This document shows, one piece after another, positions 8,505 through 59,882 of a DNA stretch of 64,000 nt (position 1 is the stretch's first letter; every line of letters starts with the position of its first letter). The stretch is from an uncultured archaeon. Lineage in GTDB: Archaea > Altiarchaeota > Altiarchaeia > IMC4 > SCGC-AAA252-I15. Below the pieces are notes generated by a model. That model was not told where the DNA came from and made no database searches. It saw only the letters and a program-made list of their open reading frames with translations. The stretch spans positions 1,135-65,134 of the forward strand of contig CAZPLO010000003.1 in the NCBI GenBank assembly GCA_964587725.1. The letters run 5' to 3'. Made by a program: the position numbers and the translations under genes.

Positions 8505-8513
8505 CCCCAACAC

Positions 8514-8527: not shown

Positions 8528-8578
8528 CTATTATGGTATTGGGTTATAAATACTCCCCCCATCATCGAGGATAGCCTG

Positions 8579-17975: not shown

Positions 17976-19481
17976 ATGGCGAAACTATGGGGAGGACGGT
18001 TCCAGAAGGACTGGAGCGAGAACGTGGAAGACTACCTGCAGTCCGTGGAAGTCGACCGCGAAATGGTGCTGGAGGATATCTGGGGGAGCGAAGCCCACGC
18101 CATCATGCTGGCGAAACAGGACATCATCTCCAACACCGACTTGAAGAAGATACTCACCTGGCTGGAAAAGGCCCGCCAGGATTATATCAGCGGGAAATTC
18201 GTCCTCAGCAAGGGGGACGAGGACGTCCACATGAACGTGGAAAAATACGTGATAAAAGGCGCCGGGCCGGAATACGGCGGCAAACTCCACACGGCGCGGA
18301 GCCGCAACGACCAGGTTCTGACCGACGCCCGCCTCCACATACGGTGGAAGATACTGGACGTGAAGAAGAAGGTAATCGCGTTGCAGAAGGTGTTCCTGAA
18401 GATAGCGGACGGCAACCTGGAGACGGTGATACCCGGGTACACGCACACCCAGGACGCGATGCCCGTGACACTGGCTTTCTGGGCGACCGCGTACGTGAGC
18501 CTGCTGATGCGGGACCTCCGCCGCCTCGACAACGCATACGAGATAGTGGACTTGAACCCGCTGGGCTCCTGCGCCTTGGCGGGGACGTCGTTTAACATCG
18601 ACCGCCGGATGACCGCCAAGCTGCTGGGCTTCAGCGGAGTCCACGTACACAGTCTCGACGTAATAAGCTCCCGCGACTTCATAGCGGAAACCCTCTGCGC
18701 ATTGGCGCTGCTGATGAGCAACCTGAGCAAGCTGGCGGAGGAGATGGTGTACTGGAGCACCTACGAGTTCGGAATCCTCGAACTCGACGACGCATACACT
18801 GCAGGCTCATCTATTATGCCGCAGAAGAAGAACCCCTGCGTGGCGGAGCTGGCCCGGGGTCGCACCGGCCGCGTATACGGCTCATTGATGCAGCTTTTGA
18901 CGATGATGAAGGGCATACCCATGGGCTACAACCGCGACCTCCAGGAGGACAAGCCGCCGCTGTGGAATGCGCTGAAGGTTGTTGAGTCCACGCTCTCGAC
19001 GACCACCGGCATGATTGAGACGATGAAGGTGAACGAGGAACGGCTGGCGGAGCTGTCGGGGGCGAACTTCACCACGGCCACGGAACTCGCCAACCATTTG
19101 GTCCGGGAGCACGGGCTGAGCTTCCGCGAATGCCACCACATAGTCGGCAACCTCGTCGGCGAACTCCACCGGAAGGGCAAGAACTTCATGGAATTCGACG
19201 AAGTCCATGCCATACTGAAAAACCACGGCGTGGAGGTCAGCTTCGACGAGATGCGCACGGTATTCGACCCACGCAAGAACATCCACACCTACCGGAGCCT
19301 CGGCAGCACCTCCCCCAAGGAGGTTGCTAAGATGATAAAGGGCTTCAAGAAGCAGACGGCGGCGAACGTGCGGAAGATTAAGGCTCAGGAGAACCGCATC
19401 GGGAAGGCGGAGAAGAAGACCCAGGCCATCGTCAGGGCCGTGTTGGGCGGCAAAGACATAAGCAAGGTACAGGTAAAATGA
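17976..19481 (+). CDS. argH: Argininosuccinate lyase
   Basis: Fumarate-lyase signature [11 protein letters not shown] and [11 protein letters not shown]. 501 aa with a basic C-terminal extension. Confidence 0.85.
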
Positions 19482-20692
19482 AGAAGAAGATTGTGTTAGC
19501 GTACTCTGGCGGACTGGACACCAGCGTGATACTGAAGTGGCTGATAGACAAAGACTACGACGTCGTAGCGTATATCGCAGACGTAGGTCAGAACGAAGAC
19601 TACGAGGCCGCCAAGAAGAAGGCCCTCCAGATAGGCGCATCCAAGGTGTACATAGAAGACCTCAAGGAAGAGTTCGTCAAAGACTTCATATACCGTGCGT
19701 TGAAGGCTAACGCAATCTACGAGGGCAAGTACCTGCTCGGCACCTCCATAGCGCGGCCGCTGATTGCGAAGCGGCAGATAGAGATTGCGCGGAAGGAAAA
19801 GACGAACGTGGTCGGCCACGGCGCCACCGGCAAAGGAAACGACCAGGTCCGCTTCGAATTAACCTATATGGCGTTGATGCCGGACGTGGAGATTTTCGCG
19901 CCGTGGAAGGACGAGGAGTTTCTGTCCCAGTTCCAGGGCCGCAGCGACATGATAAAGTATGCGGAGGAAAAAGGCATCCCTGTGGAGGCGACTTTGAAGA
20001 AACCATACAGTTCGGACGAGAACGTCATGCACAAGAGCTATGAGGCGGGCGTGCTGGAGGAGCCGGGGAAGCCGCCGTCTGAGGACATGTTCACCATGAC
20101 CGTGTCGCCGAAGGACGCGCCGGACAAGGAGGCCATGGTCTCCGTAACCTTTGAGAAGGGTGTGCCGGTGAAGGTGGAATGCAACGGGGAGGTGAAATCC
20201 AAGCCCCTGGACATACTCCTGTTCCTGAACAAAATCGCGGGCGAGAACGGCGTAGGCCGCATCGACCTGGTGGAGAACCGTTTCGTGGGCATGAAAAGCC
20301 GCGGCGTATATGAAACGCCGGGGTACACGGTGTTGCGTGCGGCGCACCTGGATTTGGAGGGGCTGACCATGGACCGCGAAGTCGTGCACCTCCGCGACAC
20401 GCTTACGCCGAAGATTTCAGAGCTCATGTACTACGGATTCTGGTATGCGCCGGAGATGGACTTCCTGATGGCGGCGGTTGAAAAGAGCCAGGAGCACGTG
20501 TCCGGCACAGTACACCTCAGCATCTACAAAGGCAACGTGATGGTGAAGTCCCGGGAGTCCCAGGAGAGCCTCTACGACCACGACGTCGCCAGCATGGACG
20601 TCCACGGAGGATACGACCAGAAAGACGCGAAAGGCTTCATAAAACTGAATGCGCTGCGGCTCCGCACGTGGGCGACCAAACACGGTAGATAG
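19478..20692 (+). CDS. argG: Argininosuccinate synthase (canonical)
   Basis: [22 protein letters not shown] and [17 protein letters not shown]. The ATG overlaps the argH stop (ATGA). Confidence 0.9.
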
Positions 20693-20693
20693 T

Positions 20694-21764
20694 TCAGTTC
20701 CCCAGTTCGTGGCGGAGCGGCTTGGATATCCTGTCATCCAACCCCAGCAGGAAACGCTCCACCCTCTCCGACTTCGTCATCCGCTCGAAGTGTTTCTCCT
20801 CAGGTTCAACATCCACGCCGGACCTTATGAGTTCCGCAGCCTTCACCCCTGCAGGGGTCATGGTCTTCACAGTGTCGCTGCTGGAGGCGGCATCGGCGAG
20901 CGGCTGCAGGAGATGGTAGTGGCGGAGGTCTCCTATGAATTCAACGGCGTTGGGGATCCAAACAGCCAGTTCCGTGAGAAGCCTGAACTCTTTGTCGCCA
21001 CACCAAAAATGTGGCCGGTGGTTCGCCAGCTCTGCTTCCGTAGCGTCGTCGAACCTGTGTCCCCACTTGTACTTGGGGAATAATCCCCGAACGGTAGTCT
21101 CATAGGTGAGGGTGTGAGACTTGGATGTGGAGACCCTGTGGGGGTTGTCTCTCATGTAAAGGTCGTTGGTATAGTCTAACCTAATCCTGTCGTCCAGCAT
21201 GTCCCTGACGCCGTCGTAGGGGTCCACCATTTCCCCCGTATTCAGCATTCCCACGTAGTCGAACGTATACTGTGCCGCCATGATGTGTTTCCTGAACGCC
21301 CACCTGCCGTCGTCCGTCTTGGAGAGGAAGTGGGGGGAGCTAAGGTGCATCCTGTCCGCCAGCGGCTGGCCTCTGTAGTCTCCCTCAAAAACGCTCCTGT
21401 TGTTGACTATTATGTCCATGAAGACGTCTTCGTGCATCCCCAGCTGCCTGGCCCCGTTTGGCCTGCCCACGGCAACGTCTATGTCTCCTAACTGGCTCTC
21501 AAAACCCATTATGAGGTTGCGTATGCTGCTGCCGGCTATCCCGAACATCCAACCCTCCACCGTCCTTGAACGCAGGAGGAATTCTCTGACCGCGCAGTCC
21601 GGAAGGTCCCCCTCCACGTCGACTTTAACGTCCCTGGCGGCTCTGCCTTCCCCGAAGGCCTTACGGAGCATGTCGCCGAACGGGTTTCTCTCAAACTCTC
21701 GGACGGTAAGTCCATCCTTCAGAAAACTCAGTTGCCTATGGTTTGGCTCCCGCTCTACAGGCAT
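20694..21764 (-). CDS. Pol-beta superfamily nucleotidyltransferase-domain protein of unknown function
   Basis: GSSIRNLIMGFESQLGDIDVAV (GS..x..DxD NTase motif). A downstream VDPYDGVRDMLDDRIRL resembles the DPxxGxxDL..R motif of the class II CCA/PAP neck. Confidence 0.4.
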   Translation of the reverse strand: MPVEREPNHRQLSFLKDGLTVREFERNPFGDMLRKAFGEGRAARDVKVDVEGDLPDCAVREFLLRSRTVEGWMFGIAGSSIRNLIMGFESQLGDIDVAVGRPNGARQLGMHEDVFMDIIVNNRSVFEGDYRGQPLADRMHLSSPHFLSKTDDGRWAFRKHIMAAQYTFDYVGMLNTGEMVDPYDGVRDMLDDRIRLDYTNDLYMRDNPHRVSTSKSHTLTYETTVRGLFPKYKWGHRFDDATEAELANHRPHFWCGDKEFRLLTELAVWIPNAVEFIGDLRHYHLLQPLADAASSSDTVKTMTPAGVKAAELIRSGVDVEPEEKHFERMTKSERVERFLLGLDDRISKPLRHELGN

Positions 21765-28529: not shown

Positions 28530-28829
28530 TCATATCTTGCATTCCTTGGGTTTCCTGCTGAACACGTTCCTGGTCATGCACACGAGCCAGTTCCAGTGCA
28601 GTATGAAGTGAACCAGCATCAAAGCAACCATCAGTATGCCGGTCCAGTTGTGTACGCTGGTCCACACCGTCTTCTGCACACCCACGAACTCCTGCAGCCC
28701 GCCCTGACGCACACCCTCGGGCATGAACAGGAAAACCGCCAATCCGGTCACGGCCACGACTACCAGGCACACGGCCAGCAGCACGTCCACCACGTAGTTC
28801 ACGTTCGTCATCTTCACTTCCACAGCCAC
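28530..28829 (-). CDS. Small two-TM membrane protein (DUF4405-like, His-rich HxW..LHWNW)
   Basis: ORF track; hydropathy. Confidence 0.35.
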   Translation of the reverse strand: MAVEVKMTNVNYVVDVLLAVCLVVVAVTGLAVFLFMPEGVRQGGLQEFVGVQKTVWTSVHNWTGILMVALMLVHFILHWNWLVCMTRNVFSRKPKECKI

Positions 28830-29662
28830 CCCAGCAGCCCCTTGCTGTTCTTCTCCTCTTGGGCCAGCTGCCGCAGCCGGTTCTGTTCCTGCTGGAGGTT
28901 CTGCATCTGTTCCTGCAGCGCCTCCTTCACTCCCTCGCTGCAGTCGCAGGAGTCCTTAAGCTGGTTGAGTTCCAGCAGCCGCTCCTGATTCTGCTCAACC
29001 TCCTCTTCTATATCGTCGGCGGCTTCGTCGTCGCCTCCGAAGAAAAACCGTGTGAGGCCGCCCCTCTTCTCAATCTTCTTCTCCGCATGTATGGTCTTCT
29101 GCACGGAGTTGTTGAACTTCCTCGCTATTTCTGAGATGTTTCGGCCTATGCCGCCTGTGAGGTTGTCCACCGCCAGCATGGCGTGAACCGCCTCCCTCAC
29201 CCTGTTCTGGTTGCGGTAGACCTTCCGGTCGTCTTCGCTCATGTTCTCGAGCTCCTGTTCCATAACCTGCTTTCTCTCCCGTATCATCTGCTTCAGATGG
29301 GTGAGGTTCGCGGCGTTCAACCCCGGACCCACGCCTTGTCCCTCGCCGGTGCCGATTCCCAGACCCCTGCCGGTCTGGTTTCCGCTGAGGCCGGGCGCGG
29401 TCTCCCATCCAGGGGACTCGTTGCCTGTCCTGTTCCCTGCAAGTCCGGGAGCGTTCTCTCGGCCGCTACTGTTCTGCAGCCCCGGCGCGCCTTCACGGCC
29501 GAGCCCATTCAGGCCGCCGTCCACGGCACCCCGGCCGTTCCCCTGCCCTGTCTGCACGCTGCCGTCGCCGGGGTTCTGAAGGTTCCCCAGGCCGGCCGCG
29601 TACGCGGTTGAAGCGGTTAAAGCCAACACCACGAAAACCGCCGAAGCCTTCGAATAATCCAT
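28814..29662 (-). CDS. Secreted protein with Gly/Pro/Asn-rich 13-aa repeats bearing N-glycosylation sequons, plus C-terminal coiled coil
   Basis: Signal peptide, then repeats GREGAPGLQNSSGRENAPGLAGNRTGNESPGWETAPGLSGNQTG. There are at least 9 NxS/T sequons. Q/E-rich coiled C-terminus. Confidence 0.4.
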   Translation of the reverse strand: MDYSKASAVFVVLALTASTAYAAGLGNLQNPGDGSVQTGQGNGRGAVDGGLNGLGREGAPGLQNSSGRENAPGLAGNRTGNESPGWETAPGLSGNQTGRGLGIGTGEGQGVGPGLNAANLTHLKQMIRERKQVMEQELENMSEDDRKVYRNQNRVREAVHAMLAVDNLTGGIGRNISEIARKFNNSVQKTIHAEKKIEKRGGLTRFFFGGDDEAADDIEEEVEQNQERLLELNQLKDSCDCSEGVKEALQEQMQNLQQEQNRLRQLAQEEKNSKGLLGWLWK

Positions 29663-38132: not shown

Positions 38133-38900
38133 ATGGCCTCCGTAGTTTCATTGGAGGATGTGAGCAAGTGGCTGGGCGACAAACTCGTGCTCGGCGGCGT
38201 GAACTGGAGTGTGTCTGAGGGAGAGCACTGGGTGGTGTTGGGAGCCAACGGCTCGGGAAAGACGACCATGCTCCGCATAGCCTCCGGCTACCTGTGGCCG
38301 ACCTCCGGCACGGTTTCGGTTCTGGGGCGTCGGTTCGGGTCCGTCGACCTCCGCGAGCTGCGGAAGAAGATTGGGTGGGTTACGTCGGCGCTGACGTCCA
38401 GGATTCCGCCCGGCGAACAGGCGTTGAATGTTGTTTTGTCTGGCAGGTACGCGAGCATGGGGCTGTATGACGAGCCGTCGGAAGCCGACAGAGGGAAGGC
38501 TGCGGGTATTCTCGAGTTCATGGATTGCGGAGAACTCGCGTGCAGGTGCTTTGGTGTTTTGTCGCAGGGGGAGCAGCAGCGCGTGCTGATCGCCCGTGCG
38601 CTGATGTCCGACCCGCGGCTGCTGATACTGGATGAGCCGTCCGCCGGCCTGGATTTGAAGGCGCGCGAGGGGTTTCTCGAATCAGTGGCCAAACTGACGG
38701 AGGAGCATACGGTGGCGTACGTCACACACCACATCGAAGAGATTATCCCTGAGTTCACGCATGTGATACTGCTGAAGGACGGCCGTGTGTTGCGCAGCGG
38801 CGTGAAAGAGGATGTATTATCCACCGGAAACCTGCGGGAGGCCTTTGGCGTCGGCCTGGAGGTTGATTTCAAGGGCGGCAGGTACTCGGTCAGGCTCTAG
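38133..38900 (+). CDS. ABC transporter ATP-binding protein (no adjacent permease)
   Basis: Walker A GANGSGKTT, signature LSQGEQQR, Walker B LILDEPSAGLD. Confidence 0.8.
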   Translation: MASVVSLEDVSKWLGDKLVLGGVNWSVSEGEHWVVLGANGSGKTTMLRIASGYLWPTSGTVSVLGRRFGSVDLRELRKKIGWVTSALTSRIPPGEQALNVVLSGRYASMGLYDEPSEADRGKAAGILEFMDCGELACRCFGVLSQGEQQRVLIARALMSDPRLLILDEPSAGLDLKAREGFLESVAKLTEEHTVAYVTHHIEEIIPEFTHVILLKDGRVLRSGVKEDVLSTGNLREAFGVGLEVDFKGGRYSVRL

Positions 38901-40083
38901 AACGCCTCCAAGCATAGTACAGGTATGCTGTGCCCATCAGCGCCAGCAGCAGGAACGCCCACAGCCACCCGCTGGAGTATATTATTTCGGTGGTGTTGTT
39001 GACTATGTTGAACAGTTTCTCCTGCACGTCCTTGAACCTGCGTCCCAGTTCCCTTACCGTCGGCAGCTTGATTCTGGCCACGGGTGTTTCAATAACAAAG
39101 GGTTCCTCAACGGTCACGTTGCTGCTGTTGGAGGCCACATGAAGTCTCCTGTTGTCTCTGACGTCCACCCTCACCTTGTATTCGCCTTCGTCCACGTCGT
39201 CGGTCGCGTCCACGTCCAGGTCGAATTCTGCGCCCCCGCTGTCGTCCACCGTCACCTCCCTGACCGTCCGGTCCCTGCCTTCGAAGCCTTCCGGGAGGCG
39301 GATGTCGACGCCGTAGGAGCCGGGCCAGCTGGCGTTCAGACGCACCCTAACATTGAACAGGTCCCCTCTGTCGACGCGGCCGGGGTTCTCCACGACAACT
39401 GAAACGTCGGGTAGGGTGCAGGGCCTGCACGGTCCGCCGCAGTCAATCCACTCCTCGCCCTGGTTCTGCCGGCCGTCGAAGCAGCCGGGTTCCGGAATGG
39501 TTGTTGTCGTGGTAGTGGACGTGGTCGTTGAGGTGGTTGACGTTGAGGTTGTGGAAGTCGTGGATGTGGTGGTGTAGAGTTCTCCCGCATGAGGGTACTG
39601 GAACAGCGTGGTGGTGGATGTGGTCGTCGTTCTGAGAGGCCTAGTGGTGGTGGTTGCGAACGTGGTGGTCGTATCCGGCATGCACTCGCACATGAAATCC
39701 CCTGTTTCAACGCACGAGCTCCCCGGCGGGCAGTCTCCGACGCATCCGCCTGCGAGGGTGTCGTGGAAGCAATAGTACTGTTGGGTGGTGGTGGTCTCGC
39801 ACGGCGGAGGATAGCATTTAAGTGTGATGTCGTCGACGCAGCACCCGCAGGAGATGCATTCGCCGGGGCTCTCGCAGGTGCAGTCGACGCAGCAGTCGTA
39901 TACTTCGTAGTTGTCGCTGGGGGTGCAGCCTGCGGCGGTCCACTCGCAGACTCCGCAGCTCAGGCACTGCGCCTCGTAGAGGCAGCTGCAGCGTATGCAG
40001 CATTCGTCTCCTGTTTTGAGGGACTGGGCTGTGGCTGCGGGGAGAAACGCCAGCAATGTGAGCAGGATTAGTGCACGCCTCAT
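38890..40083 (-). CDS. Cell-surface protein: Cys-rich N-domain (about 40 Cys), long poly-Thr linker, Ig-like/beta-sandwich region, C-terminal TM anchor
   Basis: Signal peptide, ECCIRCSCLYEAQCLSCGVCEW.., TTTSTTSTTSTS linker, C-terminal WLWAFLLLALMGTAYLYYAWRRSRA. Confidence 0.45.
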   Translation of the reverse strand: MRRALILLTLLAFLPAATAQSLKTGDECCIRCSCLYEAQCLSCGVCEWTAAGCTPSDNYEVYDCCVDCTCESPGECISCGCCVDDITLKCYPPPCETTTTQQYYCFHDTLAGGCVGDCPPGSSCVETGDFMCECMPDTTTTFATTTTRPLRTTTTSTTTLFQYPHAGELYTTTSTTSTTSTSTTSTTTSTTTTTTIPEPGCFDGRQNQGEEWIDCGGPCRPCTLPDVSVVVENPGRVDRGDLFNVRVRLNASWPGSYGVDIRLPEGFEGRDRTVREVTVDDSGGAEFDLDVDATDDVDEGEYKVRVDVRDNRRLHVASNSSNVTVEEPFVIETPVARIKLPTVRELGRRFKDVQEKLFNIVNNTTEIIYSSGWLWAFLLLALMGTAYLYYAWRRSRA

Positions 40084-49895: not shown

Positions 49896-50589
49896 TCTTC
49901 GCTCTCAACATGATATTGTTTATTATGTTTCTCAGTATCTTATTTAACGTTATCTTCGACGCACCCGCCTTCCGCTGCCGGAACAGTATCGGCACCTCCT
50001 TCACCCTGAACCCTTTCCTCGCAACCCGTAGCAGTGTCTCAGGTCCGTCGTATATGCGCCGGTCTGTTACGTAACCGTCGAGGTCGAGCTGTCTCAGCAC
50101 CTCTGTCTTGAATGCCTTGTAGCCTCCGGTGCAGTCCCTGTACGGCAGACCAAGTACGAGACGGGCGTAGGCGTTGGCGGCGCGGCTTATCAGCTTCCTC
50201 ATCGGACTCCAGCCGGGCGTCCCCCCGCCCTCAACGTACCGTGAACCGACGACCACGTCGCATCCGTGGAGTTCACTGAGAAGCCTTTTTATGTCTGCCG
50301 GGTCGTGGCTGAAGTCCGCGTCCATTTCAACGAGGGCGTCGTATCCTCTTTCGACGGCCCACTTGAACCCTGCGCGGCCTGCCTTTCCCCTCCCTCTCTC
50401 CTTTCTGTGAAGAATATGTACTCTCCCGTCTTTGGCCGCCAGCTCATCAACCACCTTCCCCGTCCCGTCGGGGCTATCATCGTCCACTACGAGGACGTCG
50501 AGGCCAGGGTCCTGCTCCACCAATGCCCCTATAATATCCACTATGTTCTCGCGTTCGTTGTATGTGGGCAGCATCGCGACGGCCTTCAT
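49882..50589 (-). CDS. GT2 glycosyltransferase, dolichyl-phosphate mannose/glucose synthase-like
   Basis: PTYNERENI, DDDSPDGT and EMDADFSHDP (DxD). Confidence 0.75.
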   Translation of the reverse strand: MKAVAMLPTYNERENIVDIIGALVEQDPGLDVLVVDDDSPDGTGKVVDELAAKDGRVHILHRKERGRGKAGRAGFKWAVERGYDALVEMDADFSHDPADIKRLLSELHGCDVVVGSRYVEGGGTPGWSPMRKLISRAANAYARLVLGLPYRDCTGGYKAFKTEVLRQLDLDGYVTDRRIYDGPETLLRVARKGFRVKEVPILFRQRKAGASKITLNKILRNIINNIMLRAKIGGV

Positions 50590-50786
50590 GACATAGGGAT
50601 TTGGTTTCAGAACTTAAATTAAGGAGGAGCATGAGGAGGGGGGTGTGGGCTATGTCCCCCTCCGTTGTGGGTGGTCTAAATTCGGTGTATTTCACCTAGG
50701 ATAGCTTTCTTAAAGCAACTATCCATATGATAATCTCTTTGCTTGCATTTAAGTATTTAGGTTTCCTATGAGAAACTAAAAATAAG

Positions 50787-51101
50787 ATGACTAAGAGAGA
50801 GAAGGAGCTGGACATCATGGGGTTCCTGGCGTCGAAGAAGTGGATACTCCTGGTGCTGACCGAACTCTACTTCCACGGCACCCAGCGGTTCAACGAACTC
50901 CTGGAGAACATGCGTGTGGTGAGCCCGAAGATATTGTCGCGGCGGCTGAAGGAACTGGAGGAGCGCGGCCTCGTGGTCCGCCGGAAGTTCAACGAGATCC
51001 CCCCGCGGGTCGAGTACACCCTGACTTCCAAGGGCATGGAGTTGGTGAAGTCGTTCGAGGGCATCGGGAAGTGGGCTATCAAGTGGGAGCGCGACCTCTA
51101 G
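50787..51101 (+). CDS. HxlR-family winged-helix transcription regulator
   Basis: KKWILLVLTELYFHGTQRFNELLENMRVVSPKILSRRLKELEERGLV. Confidence 0.7.
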   Translation: MTKREKELDIMGFLASKKWILLVLTELYFHGTQRFNELLENMRVVSPKILSRRLKELEERGLVVRRKFNEIPPRVEYTLTSKGMELVKSFEGIGKWAIKWERDL

Positions 51102-51624
51102 ACTCCAGGACCTCCGTGAACTCAGGCGTCCAATCCCTTTCCAGAATGTGTTTTCCGCCGGTCTGGAGCCAATCGACTATCGCTTCCACATCAACCCCTT
51201 CCGTGTTGTCCAACTCCAACACGTTCCCGCACCTTTTAAGGCTCTCATATAATATGACTCCTTCATATTCTGCTTCCAGGTTTTCCATAATCTTCCCGTC
51301 CGCGTAGCCGCGTTCCTTCATCCGTTTCTCCAGCAGGCGGGGGTCACACCGCAGCACCAGGACGTGGGTGGGGTCGAGTAGGTGGCTTAGCAACCCGTCC
51401 AATATGGTATTCGATTCCACTAGCCTCCAAACCTTCTCCTTCAGTCTGCCGGCGTCCACCACTTTGGTGTTCCTCTCTTCGTCGAACCTGTCGCACAGGC
51501 CTTCGCGTTCGACCAACAATGTCAATTCCATGACCTTCCACCCGAGGCGTTCCCCCAGTTTCCGGGCCAGCGTGGTCTTCCCCGTGCAGGGGGTGCCGGT
51601 GACCGCCAATACATTGTACGCCAT
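51079..51624 (-). CDS. P-loop kinase, Fap7/adenylate kinase isoenzyme 6-like
   Basis: VTGTPCTGKTT Walker A. 181 aa. Confidence 0.55.
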   Translation of the reverse strand: MAYNVLAVTGTPCTGKTTLARKLGERLGWKVMELTLLVEREGLCDRFDEERNTKVVDAGRLKEKVWRLVESNTILDGLLSHLLDPTHVLVLRCDPRLLEKRMKERGYADGKIMENLEAEYEGVILYESLKRCGNVLELDNTEGVDVEAIVDWLQTGGKHILERDWTPEFTEVLESRGRAPT

Positions 51625-51677
51625 TTTTTAACCGCTGAAGCGAATACTTTAACAGTATTTGGGGAGGCGACTATATT

Positions 51678-52019
51678 ATGTCCAACTGGAAGCTGCAGGT
51701 GCTGTTTTTGGCTCTGCTGGTGGTGTCGGATGCGGCAGCCGCCGCCACTGAGATGAAAGACATAGCCTGCAATGTCATCAAACCCATCTACGAAACCCTG
51801 AAGACCATCGCCCCCGCCCTGGTCCTGTTGATGTTCACCTACGGCGCCGTCAAGTACGCCCTCGCATCCGACGACCCCGGCGGCCGGAAGCAGGCTAAAA
51901 ACATCATGATACACGCCATCATCGCAGGCCTCATCATCGGCATCATATTATGGTTGATGGATGATGTTCTAGGACTCCTTAGCCAAGACTTGAAGAACTG
52001 TCTAGGCATAACGGCTTGA
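51678..52019 (+). CDS. Paralog 1 of the secreted two-helix hairpin family (SADDPGGRKQ loop)
   Basis: Sec-type signal peptide; mature IACNVIKP..helix1 APALVLLMFTYGAVKYALASDDPGGRKQAKNIMIHAIIAGLIIGIILWLM helix2..KNCLGITA. SD-like GGGAGG lies upstream. Confidence 0.6.
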   Translation: MSNWKLQVLFLALLVVSDAAAAATEMKDIACNVIKPIYETLKTIAPALVLLMFTYGAVKYALASDDPGGRKQAKNIMIHAIIAGLIIGIILWLMDDVLGLLSQDLKNCLGITA

Positions 52020-52083
52020 TGTTGAATCTGTTTGTTGTTTTTTTAACCTGTGAAGTGAATACTGTAACGGAGGCGTTGTTGTT

Positions 52084-52464
52084 ATGGTTAGGCGGTTGCT
52101 GGTTTTGCTGGCTGTTTTCACGCTGCTGGCTGTAGCAGCGTTTCCCGCATCCGCGGCGACAAACAAGTTGAAGGAAAACTTCTGTGAGATAGTGGTGTTG
52201 CTGCATAAGGTCCTGACGTATGTTGGGCCCACGATAGTGCTGCTGATGTTCCTCTACGGCGGCATCAAATACGTTTATTCCGCCGAGGACCCCGGCGGCC
52301 GGAAGCAGGCTAAAAACATCATGATACACGCGCTCATAGCGGGCATACTGCTGGGGCTCGCTGTGGTCATCATCGAGTTCGTGATCCCCACCATAAAAAA
52401 CGACATTGATGCCTGCTACAGGCTAGCTGGTGCGGGGGCCAGGGTCGACATTCAACCCACCTGA
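52084..52464 (+). CDS. Paralog 2 of the hairpin family
   Basis: Signal MVRRLLVLLAVFTLLAVAAFPASA; LLMFLYGGIKYVYSAEDPGGRKQAKNIMIHALIAG. Its 5' region including the signal peptide is identical to paralog 3. Confidence 0.6.
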   Translation: MVRRLLVLLAVFTLLAVAAFPASAATNKLKENFCEIVVLLHKVLTYVGPTIVLLMFLYGGIKYVYSAEDPGGRKQAKNIMIHALIAGILLGLAVVIIEFVIPTIKNDIDACYRLAGAGARVDIQPT

Positions 52465-52529
52465 TTAGACTCCTGGTTGGTTGTTTTTTTAACCTGTGAA
52501 GTGAATACTGTAACGGAGGCGTTGTTGTT

Positions 52530-52862
52530 ATGGTTAGGCGGTTGCTGGTTTTGCTGGCTGTTTTCACGCTGCTGGCTGTAGCAGTGTTTCCAGCATCCGC
52601 TAATATGGAAAAGAGCCTTGACGACACGCTCTGCGACATCCTGAAGGCCATAGGGTATGCGTTGGGAACCGTCGGCCCCATGCTTGTCGCATTGATGTTC
52701 CTCTACGGCGGAGTCAAGTACGTTTCTTCCGCAGACGACCCCGGCGGTCGCAAGCAGGGCAAGACCATATGCATACATGCGGTGATAGGCGGCATAATCA
52801 TAGCATTGGCTCACACGCTGGTGACTATGGTGGTTAATGTTCCATGCGACTTCTACTCCTGA
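52530..52862 (+). CDS. Paralog 3 of the hairpin family
   Basis: Same leader as paralog 2; LMFLYGGVKYVSSADDPGGRKQGKTICIHAVIGG. Confidence 0.6.
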   Translation: MVRRLLVLLAVFTLLAVAVFPASANMEKSLDDTLCDILKAIGYALGTVGPMLVALMFLYGGVKYVSSADDPGGRKQGKTICIHAVIGGIIIALAHTLVTMVVNVPCDFYS

Positions 52863-52918
52863 CCGCGCAAACGGTTTTTTAACGCATAAGCGGAATATAT
52901 AACAGCGAGGGGCTTCAA

Positions 52919-53284
52919 ATGCGTATCAGCGGTTTCAGGGTCTTCCAGCTAACAATAATCGCATTATACCTGCTGTCTTGTTTTTCAACGGCGGTTGACG
53001 AGTTCGCTTTAAGGGATTCCTTCTGTGGCGTAATCAACGAAATAGGCGACGTATTGGAGAAAGTCGCCCCGGTCCTGGTGCTGCTGATGTTCACCTACGG
53101 CGGCGTCAAATACGTGTTCTCCGCGGACGACCCCGGCGGCCGGAAGCAGGGGAAGATGATATGCATATACTCCATTATCGGCGGAATCCTGATAATCCTC
53201 ACATGGGAGATGATAAAGCTAATATTCGGTTCCCTACCCCAAAATTTCCGATGCCCTACAACACCTTGGATGTCGAACCTATAG
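52919..53284 (+). CDS. Paralog 4 of the hairpin family
   Basis: LLMFTYGGVKYVFSADDPGGRKQGKMICIYSIIGG. Confidence 0.6.
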   Translation: MRISGFRVFQLTIIALYLLSCFSTAVDEFALRDSFCGVINEIGDVLEKVAPVLVLLMFTYGGVKYVFSADDPGGRKQGKMICIYSIIGGILIILTWEMIKLIFGSLPQNFRCPTTPWMSNL

Positions 53285-53425
53285 GACTAATATTCTGTTC
53301 CATCCCATATGATCTCTGGTGCCCTAAGGGTTTTTACTGGCCATGATTTCTAGGCAGCCCCAAAGTCCGTCAAAATCTTTTTTTAACCTGTGAAGCGAAT
53401 ATTTAATCACCTCAACGGTGAACCC

Positions 53426-53758
53426 ATGAACAGAGACAACCTACTCCATATTCTCATGCTGGTGGCGGTTCTCGCGGCATCCGTCGACGGAGCATCCGCT
53501 AACCTGCACTCCAAGGTCTGCCCTATTCTGGAGGCGTTCATCGACGTGTTGGAGACCATAGCTCCGGCGTTGGTTCTGCTGGTGTTCACCTACGGCGGCG
53601 TCAAATACATTTCGTCGGCGGACGACCCCGGCGGCCGGAAGCAGGGTAAATCCATACTGATACACGCCATAATCGGCGGCATAATAATAATTATAGCCCG
53701 GTTCGTCGTGGGGATTGTGTTCTCAGGATGGGGCGACCAATGCCCGGGGGTTCTCTAA
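53426..53758 (+). CDS. Paralog 5 of the hairpin family (first gene of a five-gene operon)
   Basis: LLVFTYGGVKYISSADDPGGRKQGKSILIHAIIGG. The track start is 53390; ATG at 53426. Confidence 0.6.
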   Translation: MNRDNLLHILMLVAVLAASVDGASANLHSKVCPILEAFIDVLETIAPALVLLVFTYGGVKYISSADDPGGRKQGKSILIHAIIGGIIIIIARFVVGIVFSGWGDQCPGVL

Positions 53759-53760
53759 CC

Positions 53761-54135
53761 ATGCGGGGTTTATATTCAAACACCAGGGTGGGGTTGAAGG
53801 CGGCGGCGGCCGTCCTTCTTTTACAGTCGGTGTCAGCCACCACGGACATTGCCTTGGCTTTCAAGAATGCGCCGTGCATGATAATCGGCCAGGCATACGG
53901 TGTCGTCAACACGGTCGGCCCCGCCCTGATACTGGTCATGATGTTCTATGCGGTGGCAAAGTACGCGTACAGCGCGGACGACCCCGGCGGCCGGAAGCAG
54001 GCCAAAACCATATTCATCCACGCCATCATCGCGGGTATGTTCTTCGCACTGGTGGCCATAGTCTTCAGGATACTGGAAACCAACATTAGCTGGCTGTTCA
54101 AGGCCGGGAATCTCTGCTCGGGGGTTACTCTATGA
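53761..54135 (+). CDS. Paralog 6 of the hairpin family
   Basis: LVMMFYAVAKYAYSADDPGGRKQAKTIFIHAIIAG. The ATG is 3 nt after the paralog 5 stop. Confidence 0.6.
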   Translation: MRGLYSNTRVGLKAAAAVLLLQSVSATTDIALAFKNAPCMIIGQAYGVVNTVGPALILVMMFYAVAKYAYSADDPGGRKQAKTIFIHAIIAGMFFALVAIVFRILETNISWLFKAGNLCSGVTL

Positions 54136-54482
54136 GGACAAGAAACCTCATGCATGCTCTGACCCTGGTTTCACTGCTTACGTCCGGATCCAGTGTGTCG
54201 GGCGCATCGAACGCCATACACACGGTGCCGTGCAAACTATTGGGTGGCCTGTTCTCGGCGCTCACCACCATCGGCCCGTCCCTGGTGTTGTTGATGATGG
54301 TCTATGGAGCCGCCAAGTACGCGTTCAGCGCGGACGACCCCGGCGGCCGGAAGCAGGGGAAGACCATATTCATCCACGCAATCATCGGGGCCGTCATTAT
54401 GGGGCTCATATACATAATAGTTAAGGCTGTATTGGGTGCCTCATACGGTGACTATTTATGTTCGGGGGTGAAGTTCACGTAA
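54132..54482 (+). CDS. Paralog 7 of the hairpin family
   Basis: LLMMVYGAAKYAFSADDPGGRKQGKTIFIHAIIGA. Start overlaps the previous stop (ATGA). Confidence 0.6.
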   Translation: MRTRNLMHALTLVSLLTSGSSVSGASNAIHTVPCKLLGGLFSALTTIGPSLVLLMMVYGAAKYAFSADDPGGRKQGKTIFIHAIIGAVIMGLIYIIVKAVLGASYGDYLCSGVKFT

Positions 54483-54483
54483 A

Positions 54484-54831
54484 ATGTCGCTCGCACACAA
54501 GATTAAGTGGGTGGCGCCAACCGTCCTAATGTTCCTGTTGGTGTTAAGCCTGTTGGCGCCCACGGTGTCTGCATCCTACCTGGGCCCAATAACAACATTC
54601 TTAAAATCTTTAATCAACTCTATTCGCATAATAGGGAACTCAATCGCAGTCGTAATGTTCATCTACGGGGCGGCCAGGTACGTCTACGCATCCGATGACC
54701 CCGGCGGCCGGAAGCAGGCCATAAGCATATGCATAGCCTCGGTTGTGGCGTTGATAATCATCTTTATAGCGGAGTCTGTTATCGGCGCTATCTGTGCGTC
54801 GATGGGGCCTGACTGTAATCCTGTTAGCTAA
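54484..54831 (+). CDS. Paralog 8 of the hairpin family
   Basis: VVMFIYGAARYVYASDDPGGRKQAISICIASVVA. Confidence 0.6.
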   Translation: MSLAHKIKWVAPTVLMFLLVLSLLAPTVSASYLGPITTFLKSLINSIRIIGNSIAVVMFIYGAARYVYASDDPGGRKQAISICIASVVALIIIFIAESVIGAICASMGPDCNPVS

Positions 54832-54832
54832 A

Positions 54833-55150
54833 ATGAGGTATAAAATAGCGTATGCGGCGGCTTTGCTGGCTTTAATCTCAGCCGGCGTTCAGGCCACAAC
54901 CGTCGACGCAGCCGGCATAATAGCGAATGTCATATGCGACCTGGTGCCTGAGGTCATAAACCTGGCTTACGTTCTAGCGTTGCTGATGTTCATCTACGCG
55001 GGCGCCAAGTACGCGTTCAGCGCGGACGACCCCGGCGGCCGGAAGAAGGCGAAGTCGATTGCGGTCCAGGCGATTGTGGGTTTCCTGATAGTCGGCGTGT
55101 CGAAGGCCCTGGTGGAGGCCATAGCCGGTGCAGGCAACGTCTGCCCCTAA
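54833..55150 (+). CDS. Paralog 9 of the hairpin family
   Basis: LLMFIYAGAKYAFSADDPGGRKKAKSIAVQAIVGF. ATG at 54833 (track 54794). The stop overlaps the aglB stop convergently. Confidence 0.6.
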   Translation: MRYKIAYAAALLALISAGVQATTVDAAGIIANVICDLVPEVINLAYVLALLMFIYAGAKYAFSADDPGGRKKAKSIAVQAIVGFLIVGVSKALVEAIAGAGNVCP

Positions 55151-58020
55151 CCTGTTAAAATCGTCTCTGAAGCACTGGTGGTGGATGCGAAGCCGTCGTA
55201 GCTTATCTCATAGGACCTTACGAACCCCCAGCTGAAGTCTCCGTCGGGGCTGCCGTCGCCGTCGTAGTCTGGAACCAGGCGGAAGTGCTCCAGCGGCTCG
55301 ACCTCCCTGTTGTACAGCCCCAAGGCCCTGTACTCATCCAGGTACCTGCCGAGGTACAGGCGGGTAATCATGAAGTCGTTAAACTCTTGTGGAACGTAAA
55401 CAAGGGTTCTGAACTGCGGCATCCTGCAGATGCTCCCCTCCGGCAGCTGCTTCCAGTTCAACGCGCAAGCCATTATACTGGGTATTCTCTGCTCGTCGTA
55501 TCCCACCAAGGGGACTACGCCAAGGAGTGATGCGTCGTTGGCGTCCCTCCAACTGTTCCACGGTATCCTGTTCCCGTACGGGCCGATGACGGTTATGTCC
55601 GCTATGCTGTCCTCCACTATCTCGAACACTACTCCCGCGATGTAGCCCTGGCACCCGAATACCACCTGTTTGACTCGCCTGAAGTTGCCTTCGTCGTCGA
55701 CCACCAGCTGCTCCTCCACCTGGCTCTGGTCCGGGAGGAAACTGCACTGGACGTAGTTTTTGAAGGACCCTGGAGTTACGTTCTCTATGACGCCGGTGGC
55801 TATGAAGTGCAGTGCGCTGCCCTTCGGCACCATAGTCCAGTCTATGGTCACGTAGTTCAACCCCATCCCCCGTTTCTCGTAAACCTCGTTATACTCTTCA
55901 ACTATCTTGAAAGCCTCTTCCTCGCTGGTCTTGTTGACGAAGAAGCGGGCGACGTCCTGTATCTCATAGTAGTCGGCCTGCAGGTTGTCTATGAGCACCG
56001 GCCGCTGGCTCACGCTGGTGAACCAGTGGCCGTAGTCCCACCACGTCAGTATCGCGTCCCCCGGGTCGGTGTTCTGCTCGTGCCATTGGAGTGCGGGCTC
56101 CCAGTAGTATCTGTCGCTGGTGGCGCCCATGTGCATGACCTGGTAGCCCACGAACTTGTTATACTGCGTAGCCCCAAGAAGGGGGACGTAGAACACGGGT
56201 ATGAACAGCACCATGATGGCGCCCACCACCCGCAGGCTCTCCAAATCCTCCCTTTTAACCACCGCGAACAATCCTATGGTGGCTCCCAATGCTGTCACGG
56301 CTGTGCTGGACGCGAAAATCCATGCGCTCTTATGGTATGCCCCCCACAGCATCGGCAGGCTCCACGTAAGCAGGAACAGCGCCCCCACGCTACCCTTCCT
56401 GTACACCAGGTACGCGAGCACCGGAATCATCATCAGCCCGTACAGTAATGCTATGCCGTAGCGGTTGTAGCCCTGCGCCAGGAACTCCTGGAACGACCCG
56501 GCAAGCGGGTTCTGCTCCGAAACGGTCATGTGCACGACGCTCCTGGTTCTGGCGGACATCAACCCGTTGATGACGAAATCTATCATACTGGAGGGGGTGA
56601 TGAAGAATGTGAACGCCACTGTCCCAGCCACCAAGGCGACCACACCCAAAACCATTATGTTCTTACCCATCAGGTTCACCGTCCTGCTCTCCACCGAATC
56701 CCCTGATACCGTGTCCTCCCCGTACATGCGCACCCTCAATAACTCCAGTACGATGGACGCGCCCACAGCCGCTATTATCGGGTATACGGCGTTGGGCGTC
56801 ATGTCCGGGAGCGCCGGCAGCCCGCCCCTCTCATGGAGTATGAGGCCGCCGCCCAACTGCGCAATAAAAACGGGAATCAGTATGTACGGTAGCGCCTCCA
56901 CGGCGTTGCGTTTGTGCAGGAAGTTGACGAACGCGTACGCGGTCCCGAAGGCGCCCAGGGTGAGGAACGCGTACTGGGCTCCCCCCCACGCCACATTGAG
57001 CATGAGGAACGCCACGCCCGAGTAGGCAGCGTATTTGAAGCTGCGGCGGTGGTATCCCGCGAAGAACAGGTAGAGGGTGCTGACGAGCAGGAACATTCCC
57101 AGGGCGTCGTCTTCGCTGTTCGTCGCCACAGCCTTCATCGCGAAGGCTGGGCTGAGTATCAGCATGAACGCGGCCATGAACGCCGCCACCTTGTTGTACG
57201 GCCGCATGTCCGTGAACATCTCCTTCACCAGCAGGTACATAATCACCACCGTGAACGCCGATATGGCGCCGGGCAGCAGCATCGCCACGTCGTGCAGGCT
57301 GATTCCGAACGGCTCCAGCGCCAGGGCCAGCGACGAGTAAAGGACGGGCGTCATCATCCTCGTCGACGACTGGTCTAAGCCGTACATGCCCGCACGCCCG
57401 CCCATTGCAGACGGGTCGTTGCTGTGGGCCAGCCCTCCTAGCAGGGGATAAACCAGCGGGTCGAATTCAGGCGGGTATCCGCCGTCGTATATGCCCCGCA
57501 TCCACTTGTAATGCCAGTAGGGGTCGAGCGCGGCCAAATAATCTGTTTTCGCAGGCGCCATGTGGGTTATCATCCCCGACAGGAACAGCGCCGCCACGCC
57601 GGCCACCTCAGCCTTCACTACCCCATGGTAGGAGAGCGAGTACCCTAAAGCGAACACCGCCGCCACCGCGCTGAAGTACGTGTAGTCCTCGTTCAACGGG
57701 AACCCTATGGTGTTGCTGTAGTGTGAAAACAGCGCCGTTAAAAAAAGCAGGACGGGTATGCCGATGCTCCAGTAGTCCTTCTTCAGCCTCTTGTCTCTCA
57801 GAATAGTGGCGGCGGTCCACAGGAACAGCGCCGCCATCATCAATGGTGTGCTGTCTCGCAGGAACCCCCCACTCAACGGTTTAACGGACGCCAGAACCAG
57901 TGCGGCCAGCGGCGCAAGGAACAGGGGCCTGTCAAGGTGTTCGCCGACTTTCCCGAGGCCGTCGACGGGGAGGCTGACGGAAACCTCCTTCTTCTTTTTC
58001 CTCCTCTTAGAAGCCATCAC
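55147..58020 (-). CDS. aglB: Archaeal oligosaccharyltransferase AglB (STT3 homolog)
   Basis: 957 aa, 13 TM N-terminal domain, WWDYGHW (WWDYG) catalytic motif. Confidence 0.85.
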   Translation of the reverse strand: MMASKRRKKKKEVSVSLPVDGLGKVGEHLDRPLFLAPLAALVLASVKPLSGGFLRDSTPLMMAALFLWTAATILRDKRLKKDYWSIGIPVLLFLTALFSHYSNTIGFPLNEDYTYFSAVAAVFALGYSLSYHGVVKAEVAGVAALFLSGMITHMAPAKTDYLAALDPYWHYKWMRGIYDGGYPPEFDPLVYPLLGGLAHSNDPSAMGGRAGMYGLDQSSTRMMTPVLYSSLALALEPFGISLHDVAMLLPGAISAFTVVIMYLLVKEMFTDMRPYNKVAAFMAAFMLILSPAFAMKAVATNSEDDALGMFLLVSTLYLFFAGYHRRSFKYAAYSGVAFLMLNVAWGGAQYAFLTLGAFGTAYAFVNFLHKRNAVEALPYILIPVFIAQLGGGLILHERGGLPALPDMTPNAVYPIIAAVGASIVLELLRVRMYGEDTVSGDSVESRTVNLMGKNIMVLGVVALVAGTVAFTFFITPSSMIDFVINGLMSARTRSVVHMTVSEQNPLAGSFQEFLAQGYNRYGIALLYGLMMIPVLAYLVYRKGSVGALFLLTWSLPMLWGAYHKSAWIFASSTAVTALGATIGLFAVVKREDLESLRVVGAIMVLFIPVFYVPLLGATQYNKFVGYQVMHMGATSDRYYWEPALQWHEQNTDPGDAILTWWDYGHWFTSVSQRPVLIDNLQADYYEIQDVARFFVNKTSEEEAFKIVEEYNEVYEKRGMGLNYVTIDWTMVPKGSALHFIATGVIENVTPGSFKNYVQCSFLPDQSQVEEQLVVDDEGNFRRVKQVVFGCQGYIAGVVFEIVEDSIADITVIGPYGNRIPWNSWRDANDASLLGVVPLVGYDEQRIPSIMACALNWKQLPEGSICRMPQFRTLVYVPQEFNDFMITRLYLGRYLDEYRALGLYNREVEPLEHFRLVPDYDGDGSPDGDFSWGFVRSYEISYDGFASTTSASETILTG

Positions 58021-58713
58021 TCACCTGCCGTATCTCCGCTCCGTGCCGCTGAAGTCGTCCAGTATCCTGGCCAGGTCCTCCTTCTCGAACTCAGGCCACA
58101 GCTTGTGTACGAAGTATATTTCGCTGTAGGCCGACTGCCACAGGAGGAAGTTGCTGAGCCGTTCCTCGGAAGTTCGTATGATGATGTCGGGGTCGCTTTT
58201 CACCCACAGGTTGGCCCGGAGGTTGTCTTCCGTAACCTCCACTCCATGCTCAACCATGTTTTTTATGGCGTTCAAGACCTCCTGTCGGCCGCCGTATCCG
58301 ATGGCCAGGTTCAACGTGAAGTTCTTGTAGTCTCTGGTGGCCTCCTCCAGCTTGGACAGGTTCGACACCATATCAGACGCCAGCTTCTGGTTGGGGCTCT
58401 GCCTTATCAGTGAGTCAATGTCTCCGCAGACGTTGACCCGCACCTGTTTTTCCCGGAGGTTCTTGTCCTTCAACCCCTTCTTCGCGTTTTTGTTGAAGGC
58501 CTTGAAGAGGGTGTTTATCTCCCTGCTGTCGCGGTTGCCGAGGTTCTCCAGAGACAGTGCATACAGTGTTACCTCGTCGACTCCGAGGTCGTAGCTCCAC
58601 TGCAGGAAGTCGTAGAACTTGTTTATGCCCATGTTGTACGAGCTCAGCAGGTTCCTTATGTGTTTCTTCAGCATGAACCTGCGGTTCCCGTCCGGAATCA
58701 CGCCCACGTGCAT
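58021..58713 (-). CDS. uppS: cis-prenyltransferase (UPP/dehydrodolichyl-diphosphate synthase family), complete with C-terminal RxG
   Basis: HVGVIPDGNRRF catalytic N-terminus. C-terminal FSGTERRYGR. Confidence 0.8.
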   Translation of the reverse strand: MHVGVIPDGNRRFMLKKHIRNLLSSYNMGINKFYDFLQWSYDLGVDEVTLYALSLENLGNRDSREINTLFKAFNKNAKKGLKDKNLREKQVRVNVCGDIDSLIRQSPNQKLASDMVSNLSKLEEATRDYKNFTLNLAIGYGGRQEVLNAIKNMVEHGVEVTEDNLRANLWVKSDPDIIIRTSEERLSNFLLWQSAYSEIYFVHKLWPEFEKEDLARILDDFSGTERRYGR

Positions 58714-58774: not shown

Positions 58775-59248
58775 ATGGAAGTGCAGGTCTTGGACGCGTC
58801 CGCGATACTCCGCAGCACCATGGATTTTTCCCGCGGAAACTACCTGATTCCGCAGGCGGCGTATGCGGAAGTCTTGGACGGAACCGCCCGGGCCGCATTG
58901 GAGGATGGAATACGGAACGGCGACATAAAAGTGGCTGAACCGGCTCCCGAGGCGCTGGAGAAGGCGCGGGAGGCGGCTTCCGCCACAGGAGACGTCGAAT
59001 CATTGAGCGACGCGGACCTGCAGTTGCTGGCGTTGGCCCTGGAACACGCCGCCGCCGTCGTATCCGACGACTACGCCATACAGAACACTGCCGCCGAACT
59101 CGGCCTGGAGGTGGTCGCAACATCGGCAGACGGCATAAAAAAACACATCAGGTGGCGGTGGGTGTGCGGCGGCTGCGGGAAATCCATGGACGGGTCTGGC
59201 GTATGCGGCGTATGCGGCCACAAAGCTAGGAGGAAGCCTAGCCCTTAG
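58775..59248 (+). CDS. Nob1-like PIN-domain endonuclease with C-terminal zinc ribbon
   Basis: PIN acidic residues (VLDASAIL...SDDYAIQNTA) and CGGCGKSMDGSGVCGVCGH. Confidence 0.55.
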   Translation: MEVQVLDASAILRSTMDFSRGNYLIPQAAYAEVLDGTARAALEDGIRNGDIKVAEPAPEALEKAREAASATGDVESLSDADLQLLALALEHAAAVVSDDYAIQNTAAELGLEVVATSADGIKKHIRWRWVCGGCGKSMDGSGVCGVCGHKARRKPSP

Positions 59249-59882
59249 CCTGTTCCACATACCATCTGAAGGAGTCGTCCAAGTCCTCTTTCACGGCGTC
59301 CGGCCACAGCCGCTCAAAGACGTGCAAGTAGGCGTAGGCGCTCTGGTACGGCAGGAACCCGCTCAACCTGCTCCGGCCGCCCCACCGCACAATCAGGTCT
59401 ATCTCAGGTATCCTGTAGGAGTGCATCCTGTGCCTCAGCCCCACCCTGCCGAGGTCCCACTTGTAGTCGTAGTTCACCAGCAGGTTCAGCCGCATTGACG
59501 CGTTTTTGCTGTGCCTTCTGTTCACGTATTTCCTCAGTTTCTTGGGGAAAATCTCGGAGTCTCGTTTACCCACAATGTTGAGGGAAAGCCCGTCTATGTC
59601 GTTCAGCCGGTCCACCAGGTTGACTATCGACTTCGAATAGGATTCAACCTCATGCGGTTCTCGCTCCCTGCTGTAGGGGAGGAATCCGTAGGCGGTGACT
59701 TCATTGACGCCGCATTCCATGCTGTACGTCAGTATCTCAACCGCCCTCTCAACCGCCTTCCCGTAGGCTTTTCCGACGTCGACTCCGTTTTTCCTGGCCC
59801 ACCTGCGGTTGCCGTCCGGTATCACGCCCAGGTGCCCCGGCACCCTCTTTTCTTTGCTCATGTAGTCTTCAAATCGCACCAC
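59238..59882 (-). CDS. Second cis-prenyltransferase paralog, lacking the C-terminal RxG motif
   Basis: HLGVIPDGNRRWARKNG catalytic N-terminus. Ends ...SFRWYVEQAKG. Confidence 0.7.
   Translation of the reverse strand: MVRFEDYMSKEKRVPGHLGVIPDGNRRWARKNGVDVGKAYGKAVERAVEILTYSMECGVNEVTAYGFLPYSREREPHEVESYSKSIVNLVDRLNDIDGLSLNIVGKRDSEIFPKKLRKYVNRRHSKNASMRLNLLVNYDYKWDLGRVGLRHRMHSYRIPEIDLIVRWGGRSRLSGFLPYQSAYAYLHVFERLWPDAVKEDLDDSFRWYVEQAKG

Follow-up and report, generated by a model that had tools for sequence, protein, structure and literature searches.

Pilins of the VirB2 type have been described as single proteins in the Ced and Ted systems of Crenarchaeota, and as gene arrays in candidate phyla radiation bacteria (CPR, Patescibacteria) and in a few pathogens. 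Ced and Ted are archaeal DNA-import systems whose VirB2-like pilins, CedA1 and TedC, are encoded next to VirB4-like and VirB6-like genes; TedC carries a cleaved Sec signal peptide with an AxA-type site (PMC9905601). The CPR arrays consist of 2-11 small, highly diverged VirB2-like genes with Sec signals in tandem; they lie near virB4 in 1,135 of 1,948 assemblies, and a large fraction is found away from virB4 (PMC12102498). They have been likened to the amplified pilin genes of Bartonella and Anaplasma and read as surface variation (PMC12102498). In this study, we describe a tandem array of nine predicted VirB2-like pilin genes, p1 to p9, in a 64-kb stretch of DNA (hereafter the window) on contig CAZPLO010000003.1 of an uncultured member of the Altiarchaeota. 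Two adjacent genes of this array, p2 and p3, have a near-identical 5' module in common, comprising promoter-like elements, leader and signal peptide, while their mature regions are as diverged as those of other family members. We propose that this repeat is probably a short and recent gene-conversion tract which homogenised the 5' modules of two old paralogs.

In the Trw system of Bartonella and in Anaplasma phagocytophilum, pilin variation is interpreted as variation of surface subunits. These arrays are bacterial, are located within a complete type IV secretion system (T4SS) locus and belong to host-associated pathogens. In Neisseria, one expressed locus, pilE, is accompanied by silent, promoterless and partial pilS copies, and it is the variable part of the gene that moves. 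The array of the Altiarchaeota resembles that of Bartonella (virB2/trwL) and A. phagocytophilum in the tandem amplification and variation of T4SS pilin genes. Unlike these, it has no linked T4SS machinery in the window or in the flanks retrieved from related loci. With the CPR arrays (PF04956/PF18895) it shares the Pfam family, the tandem arrangement of small genes with Sec signals and the divergence of the members, and one CPR-like locus (L021; related loci are designated by L numbers) consists of five tandem genes with no ATPase within 10 kb. It differs from them in its archaeal host, in its fixed chromosomal position adjoining the oligosaccharyltransferase gene AglB, in its five ortholog types (A-E), the first of which appears to be amplified with its promoter, and in paralogs that are up to 54% identical at the protein level and in which the DDPGGRK loop is strictly conserved. 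For CPR arrays, no case has been reported of two members with a near-identical 5' module, as found here. The pilins resemble CedA1 and TedC in being small archaeal pilins predicted to form helical hairpins, TedC likewise having a Sec signal and an AxA-type site. Unlike Ced and Ted, for which no such array has been reported, the loci described here hold 3-9 pilin genes without VirB4-like or VirB6-like neighbours.

The two copies of the module lie on the forward strand, 446 nt apart. Base-by-base comparison at this offset revealed a perfect match of 105 nt (52034-52138 and 52480-52584). With a repeat finder and BLAST the repeat extends to 52030-52154, upstream of and into p2, and 52476-52600, upstream of and into p3, and 122 of the 125 nt match (97.6%). 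The three mismatches are located at 52033 (T/G, at the repeat edge), at 52139 (C/T, changing Ala19 to Val) and at 52146 (C/A, synonymous). A preliminary description of the locus, made from the sequence alone, had called 52033-52145 and 52479-52591 identical; the repeat is real and near-identical, with two mismatches falling inside this range. The quoted peptide MVRRLLVLLAVFTLLAVA is indeed the same in p2 and p3, and the length, the position and the quoted mature sequences were given correctly. That the identity was a transcription error, or that divergence was uniform along the gene, had been considered as well. The direct comparison confirms the patch in both respects.

The stretch of perfect identity begins 50 nt upstream of the ATG and takes in the first 55 nt of coding sequence, neutral positions included. 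Among all gene pairs of the array, this 105-nt run is the longest exact string in common, the next real one being 44 nt long. As p2 and p3 are only 56% identical at the DNA level outside the patch, the run lies far beyond chance (about 0.56^105). Just two copies of the 125-nt unit are present in the window, and 23 related loci contain none. A dispersed or mobile repeat was therefore rejected. Upstream of 52030, p2 and p3 show no similarity whatsoever, and downstream of the patch they fall to 56% DNA identity. Both edges are sharp and lie inside the repeat unit, near-identity switching abruptly to divergence of the family level. Since the edges are inside the unit and similarity is absent upstream of 52030, neither simple duplication nor unequal crossover accounts for the patch.

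Divergence inside and outside the module was compared in a codon alignment of the nine pilin genes, with synonymous divergence (dS) determined by the method of Nei and Gojobori. In the signal region, p2 and p3 are 92% identical at the DNA level, every other pair reaching 28-49%; in the mature region, their 56% identity is within the family range of 45-60%. For p2 and p3, dS amounts to 0.12 in the signal region, against a saturated value of 1.24 in the mature region. All pairs are saturated in dS, with the p2/p3 signal region as the sole exception. The mature p3 protein is 54% identical to p5, 52% to p4 and 47% to p2. Because mature dS is saturated and p3 is nearer to p5 and p4 than to p2, p2 and p3 appear to be old paralogs and not young duplicates, and the recent duplication assumed in the preliminary description is not supported. 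Its proposal that gene conversion homogenised the 5' end agrees well with the sharp edges, the identical neutral sites and the family-level divergence of the mature regions.

That the identity is old and has been maintained by purifying selection acting on promoter, leader and signal peptide is the least probable of the explanations we considered. In its favour, conservation of promoter elements is seen throughout p1-p5 and also in other genomes. However, such selection does not leave all synonymous and spacer bases unchanged. What the other paralogs have in common is only a promoter box of about 23 nt, with signal DNA 28-49% identical, and the leader has neither a significant RNA structure (z = -0.5) nor an Rfam match. 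Since non-coding and synonymous sites are identical throughout the patch, selection on protein or promoter cannot explain it.

Almost as improbable is a recent duplication followed by strong diversifying selection on the exposed mature part with the 5' part unchanged, although the products are probably surface subunits and, in pathogens, diversification of tandem VirB2 paralogs is thought to serve immune evasion or host range (PMC12102498). Selection at the protein level cannot yield such divergence beside 105 unchanged nt, mature dS is saturated at 1.24, and p3 is nearer to p4 and p5 than to p2. The comparison of nonsynonymous and synonymous divergence (dN/dS), suggested beforehand as a check, gave about 0.43 over the whole mature region of p2 and p3, with dS saturated, and lends no support to diversifying selection. 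Because the synonymous sites are saturated, this test cannot answer the selection question. The antigenic variation that the preliminary description had expected was not borne out.

A third possibility is a recent tandem duplication of the 446-bp unit, after which one mature region was replaced by cassette exchange from the 3' side, with a divergent allele of another strain or a since-lost paralog as source. We consider this unlikely, though less so than the other alternatives. Divergent alleles do enter pilin genes of this family, as two strains with flanks about 99.7% identical (L007 and L013) show a difference of 17.6% in gene E, and the identical modules flank the mature region of p2 like cassette borders. 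On the other hand, no donor for either mature region is held by the array (best DNA match 59%), import at 44% divergence needs strong 3' homology anchors, of which none were seen, and the mature parts show the saturated divergence typical of the family.

The repeat appears to hold a complete expression and export module and none of the mature protein, as the last codon of the A-S-A site, where cleavage is predicted, marks the end of the similarity between p2 and p3. In copy 1, the promoter-like part is located at 52038-52068, and the same bases are found at 52484-52514 in copy 2. Read from the sequence, it consists of T7AACC (52038-52048), the box TGAAGTGAATA (52051-52061) and, overlapping it, the A/T-rich ATACTGTAAC (52059-52068). 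A Shine-Dalgarno-like GGAGG follows (52069-52073; 52515-52519 in copy 2), 10 nt before the p2 ATG at 52084. The p2 signal peptide of 24 codons, MVRRLLVLLAVFTLLAVAAFPASA (52084-52155), has a charged MVRR start, a hydrophobic core and a PASA end with the A-S-A motif, where cleavage is predicted by inspection from the -3/-1 rule; its counterpart in p3 is MVRRLLVLLAVFTLLAVAVFPASA (52530-52601), also of 24 codons. The mature regions with stop codon, both matching PF18895, follow at 52156-52464 for p2 (ATNKLKENFCEIV...) and at 52602-52862 for p3 (NMEKSLDDTLCDIL...).

Four occurrences of the motif TTTTTTAACCNNTGAAGYGAATA were found in the 64 kb, with none expected by chance, and each precedes a pilin gene on the forward strand: p1 (51624-51646), p2 (52039-52061), p3 (52485-52507) or p5 (53379-53401). 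A degenerate version is found before p4 (52874-52903). In L002, L011, L012 and L023, TTTT(T)AACC followed by an A/T-rich box is located about 30-60 nt upstream of the first-type pilin genes. The T-run directly adjoins the stop codon of the preceding gene, and it may double as the terminator of that gene and as a TATA element. If this T-run is the TATA box, the leader would be short, about 15-25 nt, and contain GGAGG; if the second A/T box plays this part, the mRNA would be nearly leaderless. A structured RNA element was rejected because an Rfam search of 50000-56000 (E <= 1) gave no match and the RNA of the shared leader and signal region folds no better than shuffled sequence (z = -0.5).

We therefore favour gene conversion, that is, a recent non-reciprocal copy from paralog to paralog, at least 105 and up to about 125 nt long, which would join the adjacent old paralogs p2 and p3. 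By this event one gene would have exchanged its whole 5' expression and export module for that of its neighbour, including the oligo-T/TATA-like element, the conserved GAAGYGAATA box, GGAGG, the start codon and the signal peptide of 24 residues. The proposed tract spans the distance between two short islands which are already conserved among first-type genes, the T-run/TTTTTTAACC promoter element and the GCATCCGC codons at the A-S-A site, and the exchange might have been anchored in them. Both p3 and p5 carry AGCATCCGCTAA at the cleavage site. Compared with Neisseria pilE/pilS, the array is similar in its short, apparently non-reciprocal tracts between pilin copies with conserved segments in common. 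Unlike in Neisseria, all copies are complete, p1-p5 have their own promoter modules and it is the constant 5' part that would have been copied.

Some observations weigh against gene conversion as the origin of the patch. Little sequence homology is found past the 3' edge, which is unusual for classical conversion, so that conversion must invoke microhomology. The last 16 nt of the 125-nt repeat contain two mismatches and may reflect older shared ancestry, which leaves the 3' end uncertain and is the reason for giving the tract as 105-125 nt. By protein identity, the nearest relative of p2 is p3, if only marginally (47%), and the tree of the mature region is weak. In this rough neighbour-joining tree with long branches, p2 groups with p1, and p3 groups with p4 and p5; the conflict between mature region and 5' module is suggestive but weak. 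Furthermore, p2, p3 and p5 are singletons from one contig with no sister strain in the collections, and donor, recipient and timing can therefore not be set. The source is a metagenome assembly. An assembly artefact, in which strain variants were stitched together or a repeat was mis-joined, would be in line with a contig from a metagenome-assembled genome (MAG) and with each looked-up pilin protein being known from one contig. This we regard as improbable, since a single contig carries both copies at a distance of 446 nt with their reading frames intact, a typical read is longer than the repeat and should span it, and independent assemblies reproduce the overall structure of the array.

Patchy recombination seems to recur across these arrays. 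Within the window, a 44-nt exact patch in the loop region, encoding DPGGRKQAKNIMIHA, is common to p1 (51873-51916) and p2 (52288-52331) on the forward strand, and may be a second, smaller conversion tract. The p6 protein is a mosaic. Its N-terminal part is 50% identical to the type-B ortholog of L002 versus 29% to p7, its core is 56% identical to p7 versus 43% to type B, and its C-terminal part is also nearest to p7. The genes p6 and p7 (53761-54482) have cores of 129 nt with 83% identity, more than any other pair of cores in the array. Further patches, 65-112 nt long and 93-97% identical, were found in L006, L008, L012 and L016, and those of L006, L008 and L016 are from paralog to paralog. 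In L012 a 112-nt repeat (92-203 and 1181-1292, 93% identity) derives from the 3' ends of the genes for an HxlR-family regulator and a kinase, and this copy of non-pilin flanking DNA sits between the two pilin genes of the first type. Flanking DNA thus seems to have been copied along when the first gene was amplified in L012.

Allelic differences are patchy, too. Between the near-identical strains L007 (1-4305) and L013 (1261-5566), the flanks and genes B and D show about 0.3 differences per 100 nt. Gene C differs by 4.6 per 100 nt, all within a stretch of 70 nt (486-556), and gene E by 17.6 per 100 nt, mostly at synonymous positions. This pattern points to imported divergent alleles. A syntenic locus with six pilin genes, L023, has no 5' module common to its paralogs, and the p2/p3 event is thus specific to the lineage studied here. 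The preliminary description had proposed a comparison of related genomes for copy-number and mosaic variation. In that comparison, pilin genes number from three to nine, and strain differences are patchy and confined to particular pilin genes; the locus therefore varies both in copy number and mosaically.

The nine genes, all on the forward strand, encode products of 105-126 amino acids (aa) with Sec-type signals. p1 (113 aa, 51678-52019) is followed by p2 and p3 and by p4 (121 aa, 52919-53284). p5 (110 aa, 53426-53758) is the first gene of a tightly packed operon with p6 (124 aa, type B, 53761-54135), which starts 2 nt past the p5 stop, p7 (116 aa, type C, 54132-54482), which overlaps the end of p6, p8 (115 aa, type D, 54484-54831), which matches PF18895, and p9 (105 aa, type E, 54833-55150), the end of which overlaps the end of the convergent AglB gene. 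The genes p5-p9 are separated by at most 2 nt or overlap, and they correspond to the ortholog types A-E. The genes p1-p4 are additional single-gene units of type A, each with its own T-run and promoter module. Accordingly arranged, p5-p9 look like an ancestral five-gene operon and p1-p4 like extra units. The preliminary description had also raised a cassette system with an expression site and silent copies. This does not fit the array. All nine genes are complete with start codon and signal peptide, p1-p5 each have a promoter-like module of their own, p5-p9 form the operon, and promoterless partial copies are absent.

Eight of the nine genes score above the 26.6-bit threshold of PF18895 (T4SS_pilin; 31.1-49.1 bits), p6 falling just short with 26.4. 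p3 (30.1) and p9 (28.5) also pass the threshold of 27.9 for TrbC/VirB2 (PF04956). On this basis p1-p9 are assigned to PF18895 as predicted VirB2/TrbC-like pilins. NCBIfam gave sub-threshold matches alone, to a pilin-like family of Mycoplasma integrative and conjugative elements. The matches to PF18895 throughout the family, together with those to TrbC/VirB2, agree with the earlier suggestion that the products are exported and probably surface-exposed subunits. A class III signal, as in archaeal type IV pilins, was rejected by inspection: starts such as MVRRLLVLL, MSNWKLQVL and MNRDNLLHIL have no G/A at -1, and the site in these pilins is of the AxA type after the hydrophobic core, not a prepilin-peptidase site, [KR][GA], before a hydrophobic stretch.

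Throughout the family, two hydrophobic helices are joined by an invariant loop, (S/A)(D/E)DPGGRK. At least 90% of the members have a cysteine close to the mature N-terminus, and at least 90% have one close to the C-terminus. In mature p3 these are residues 11 and 82 (52632-52634 and 52845-52847, forward strand). An AlphaFold2 model of mature p3, built on an alignment of 35 sequences, predicts a two-helix hairpin (H4-42 and H47-84) with DDPGGRK at the turn, at a mean predicted local distance difference test (pLDDT) value of 88.5. The two cysteines of p3 are at the open end of this predicted hairpin, and a disulfide staple between them is plausible. Head-to-tail cyclisation has been proposed to staple some bacterial pilins in a like manner. 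Sequence comparison with solved structures detected no relative of these pilins. A Foldseek search with the p3 model returned generic hairpins; the Aeropyrum CedA1 pilus (8dfu) ranked 26th with a template modelling (TM) score of 0.65 and a non-significant E value of 3.7.

The window is a piece of archaeal chromosome, encoding FttA/aCPSF1, PriS, AglB, CysRS, ArgG, ArgH and riboflavin synthesis genes. Two argininosuccinate-synthase paralogs (16630-17907 and 19478-20692) flank the gene for argininosuccinate lyase, and the open reading frames (ORFs) 38890-40083 (397 aa), 20694-21764 (356 aa) and 28814-29662 (282 aa) have no Pfam or NCBIfam match. The products of p2, p3 and p5 match, at 100% identity, proteins encoded on a single NCBI contig of 116 kb. 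The pilin homologs that carry names are all from Candidatus Altiarchaeota or Altiarchaeales, and the AglB of the window is 58% and 54% identical over the full length to AglB of two MAGs labelled Altiarchaeota. One ortholog has already been named 'pilin' by automatic annotation at NCBI.

The neighbourhood of the array is conserved. Upstream are a gene for an HxlR-family regulator (50787-51101, forward strand) and, divergent from p1, a gene resembling AAA_18 nucleotide kinases (51079-51624, reverse strand); downstream, AglB/STT3 oligosaccharyltransferase (55147-58020, reverse strand) is convergent with the array, as in all related loci that reach that far. The syntenic order across genomes is HxlR regulator, AAA_18 kinase, pilin array, convergent AglB, cis-prenyltransferase, PIN, amine oxidase and PriS. 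The part of this order from HxlR to PIN is given for 50787-58713 in the window and has counterparts in L001, L002, L009, L012 and L023. Downstream of AglB there are two cis-prenyltransferase paralogs (58021-58713 and 59238-59882). In L002, a HEPN/nucleotidyltransferase pair and a gene for an AAA_14/DUF4143 ATPase are inserted between kinase gene and pilin array (7298-9855). N-glycosylation of the pilins as a reason for the linkage to AglB was rejected by inspection, as the nine mature proteins contain a single N-X-S/T sequon, in p6.

The array holds three pilin genes in L009, at least four in L001, where it meets the contig end, five in L002, L003, L004 and L013, six in L011, L023 and a 39-kb contig of the Joint Genome Institute (JGI), and nine in the window. 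The five ortholog types A-E keep their order across genomes, and the first gene is amplified in L011, L012 and L023 too. No VirB4, VirB6 or coupling protein was found among the main ORFs scanned in the window, of which five matched no family, nor in the flanks, retrieved over about 3-10 kb to each side, of L001, L002, L009, L015, L023 and the 39-kb JGI contig. As a control, a distant bacterial locus (L022) has a TraG/AAA_10 ATPase adjoining its pilin-like gene. Gene linkage within the window and the retrieved flanks does not support membership in a T4SS. An origin from a mobile element is likewise not supported; searches of viral contigs and of PLSDB plasmids found no relatives. In a literature search, we found no account that links Altiarchaeota with VirB2-type pilins or describes an AglB-linked array of 3-9 genes.

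The patch itself is an ordinary evolutionary event for a tandem gene family. It would be a clean case of concerted evolution in which nothing but a pilin gene's expression and export module is affected. If read as such, the mature pilins of p2 and p3 should be transcribed, translated and exported under identical control. The mature region of p2 is flanked by direct repeats of 125 nt; the 446-bp unit should therefore be prone to loss or amplification and unstable in copy number. More interesting than the patch is the AglB-linked VirB2-like array of variable copy number in Altiarchaeota, an archaeal phylum reported to have a double membrane. Tentatively, and with less confidence than we place in the conversion tract, we suggest that it might be a vertically inherited operon of five VirB2-like pilin genes (A-E), linked to AglB and HxlR and without a linked T4SS ATPase, the first gene of which was amplified with its promoter to at most five copies, which short recombination tracts shuffled and in part homogenised. 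This first gene would probably encode the major subunit. If the proteins build a filament or an envelope structure, it would be a domesticated pilus of the conjugation type, possibly independent of VirB4, and the shared 5' module would then be a means of co-expressing variant major subunits. The locus is a concrete candidate for a surface structure in an uncultivated phylum, and it can serve to test whether pilins of the VirB2 type are able to function where no T4SS is linked to them.

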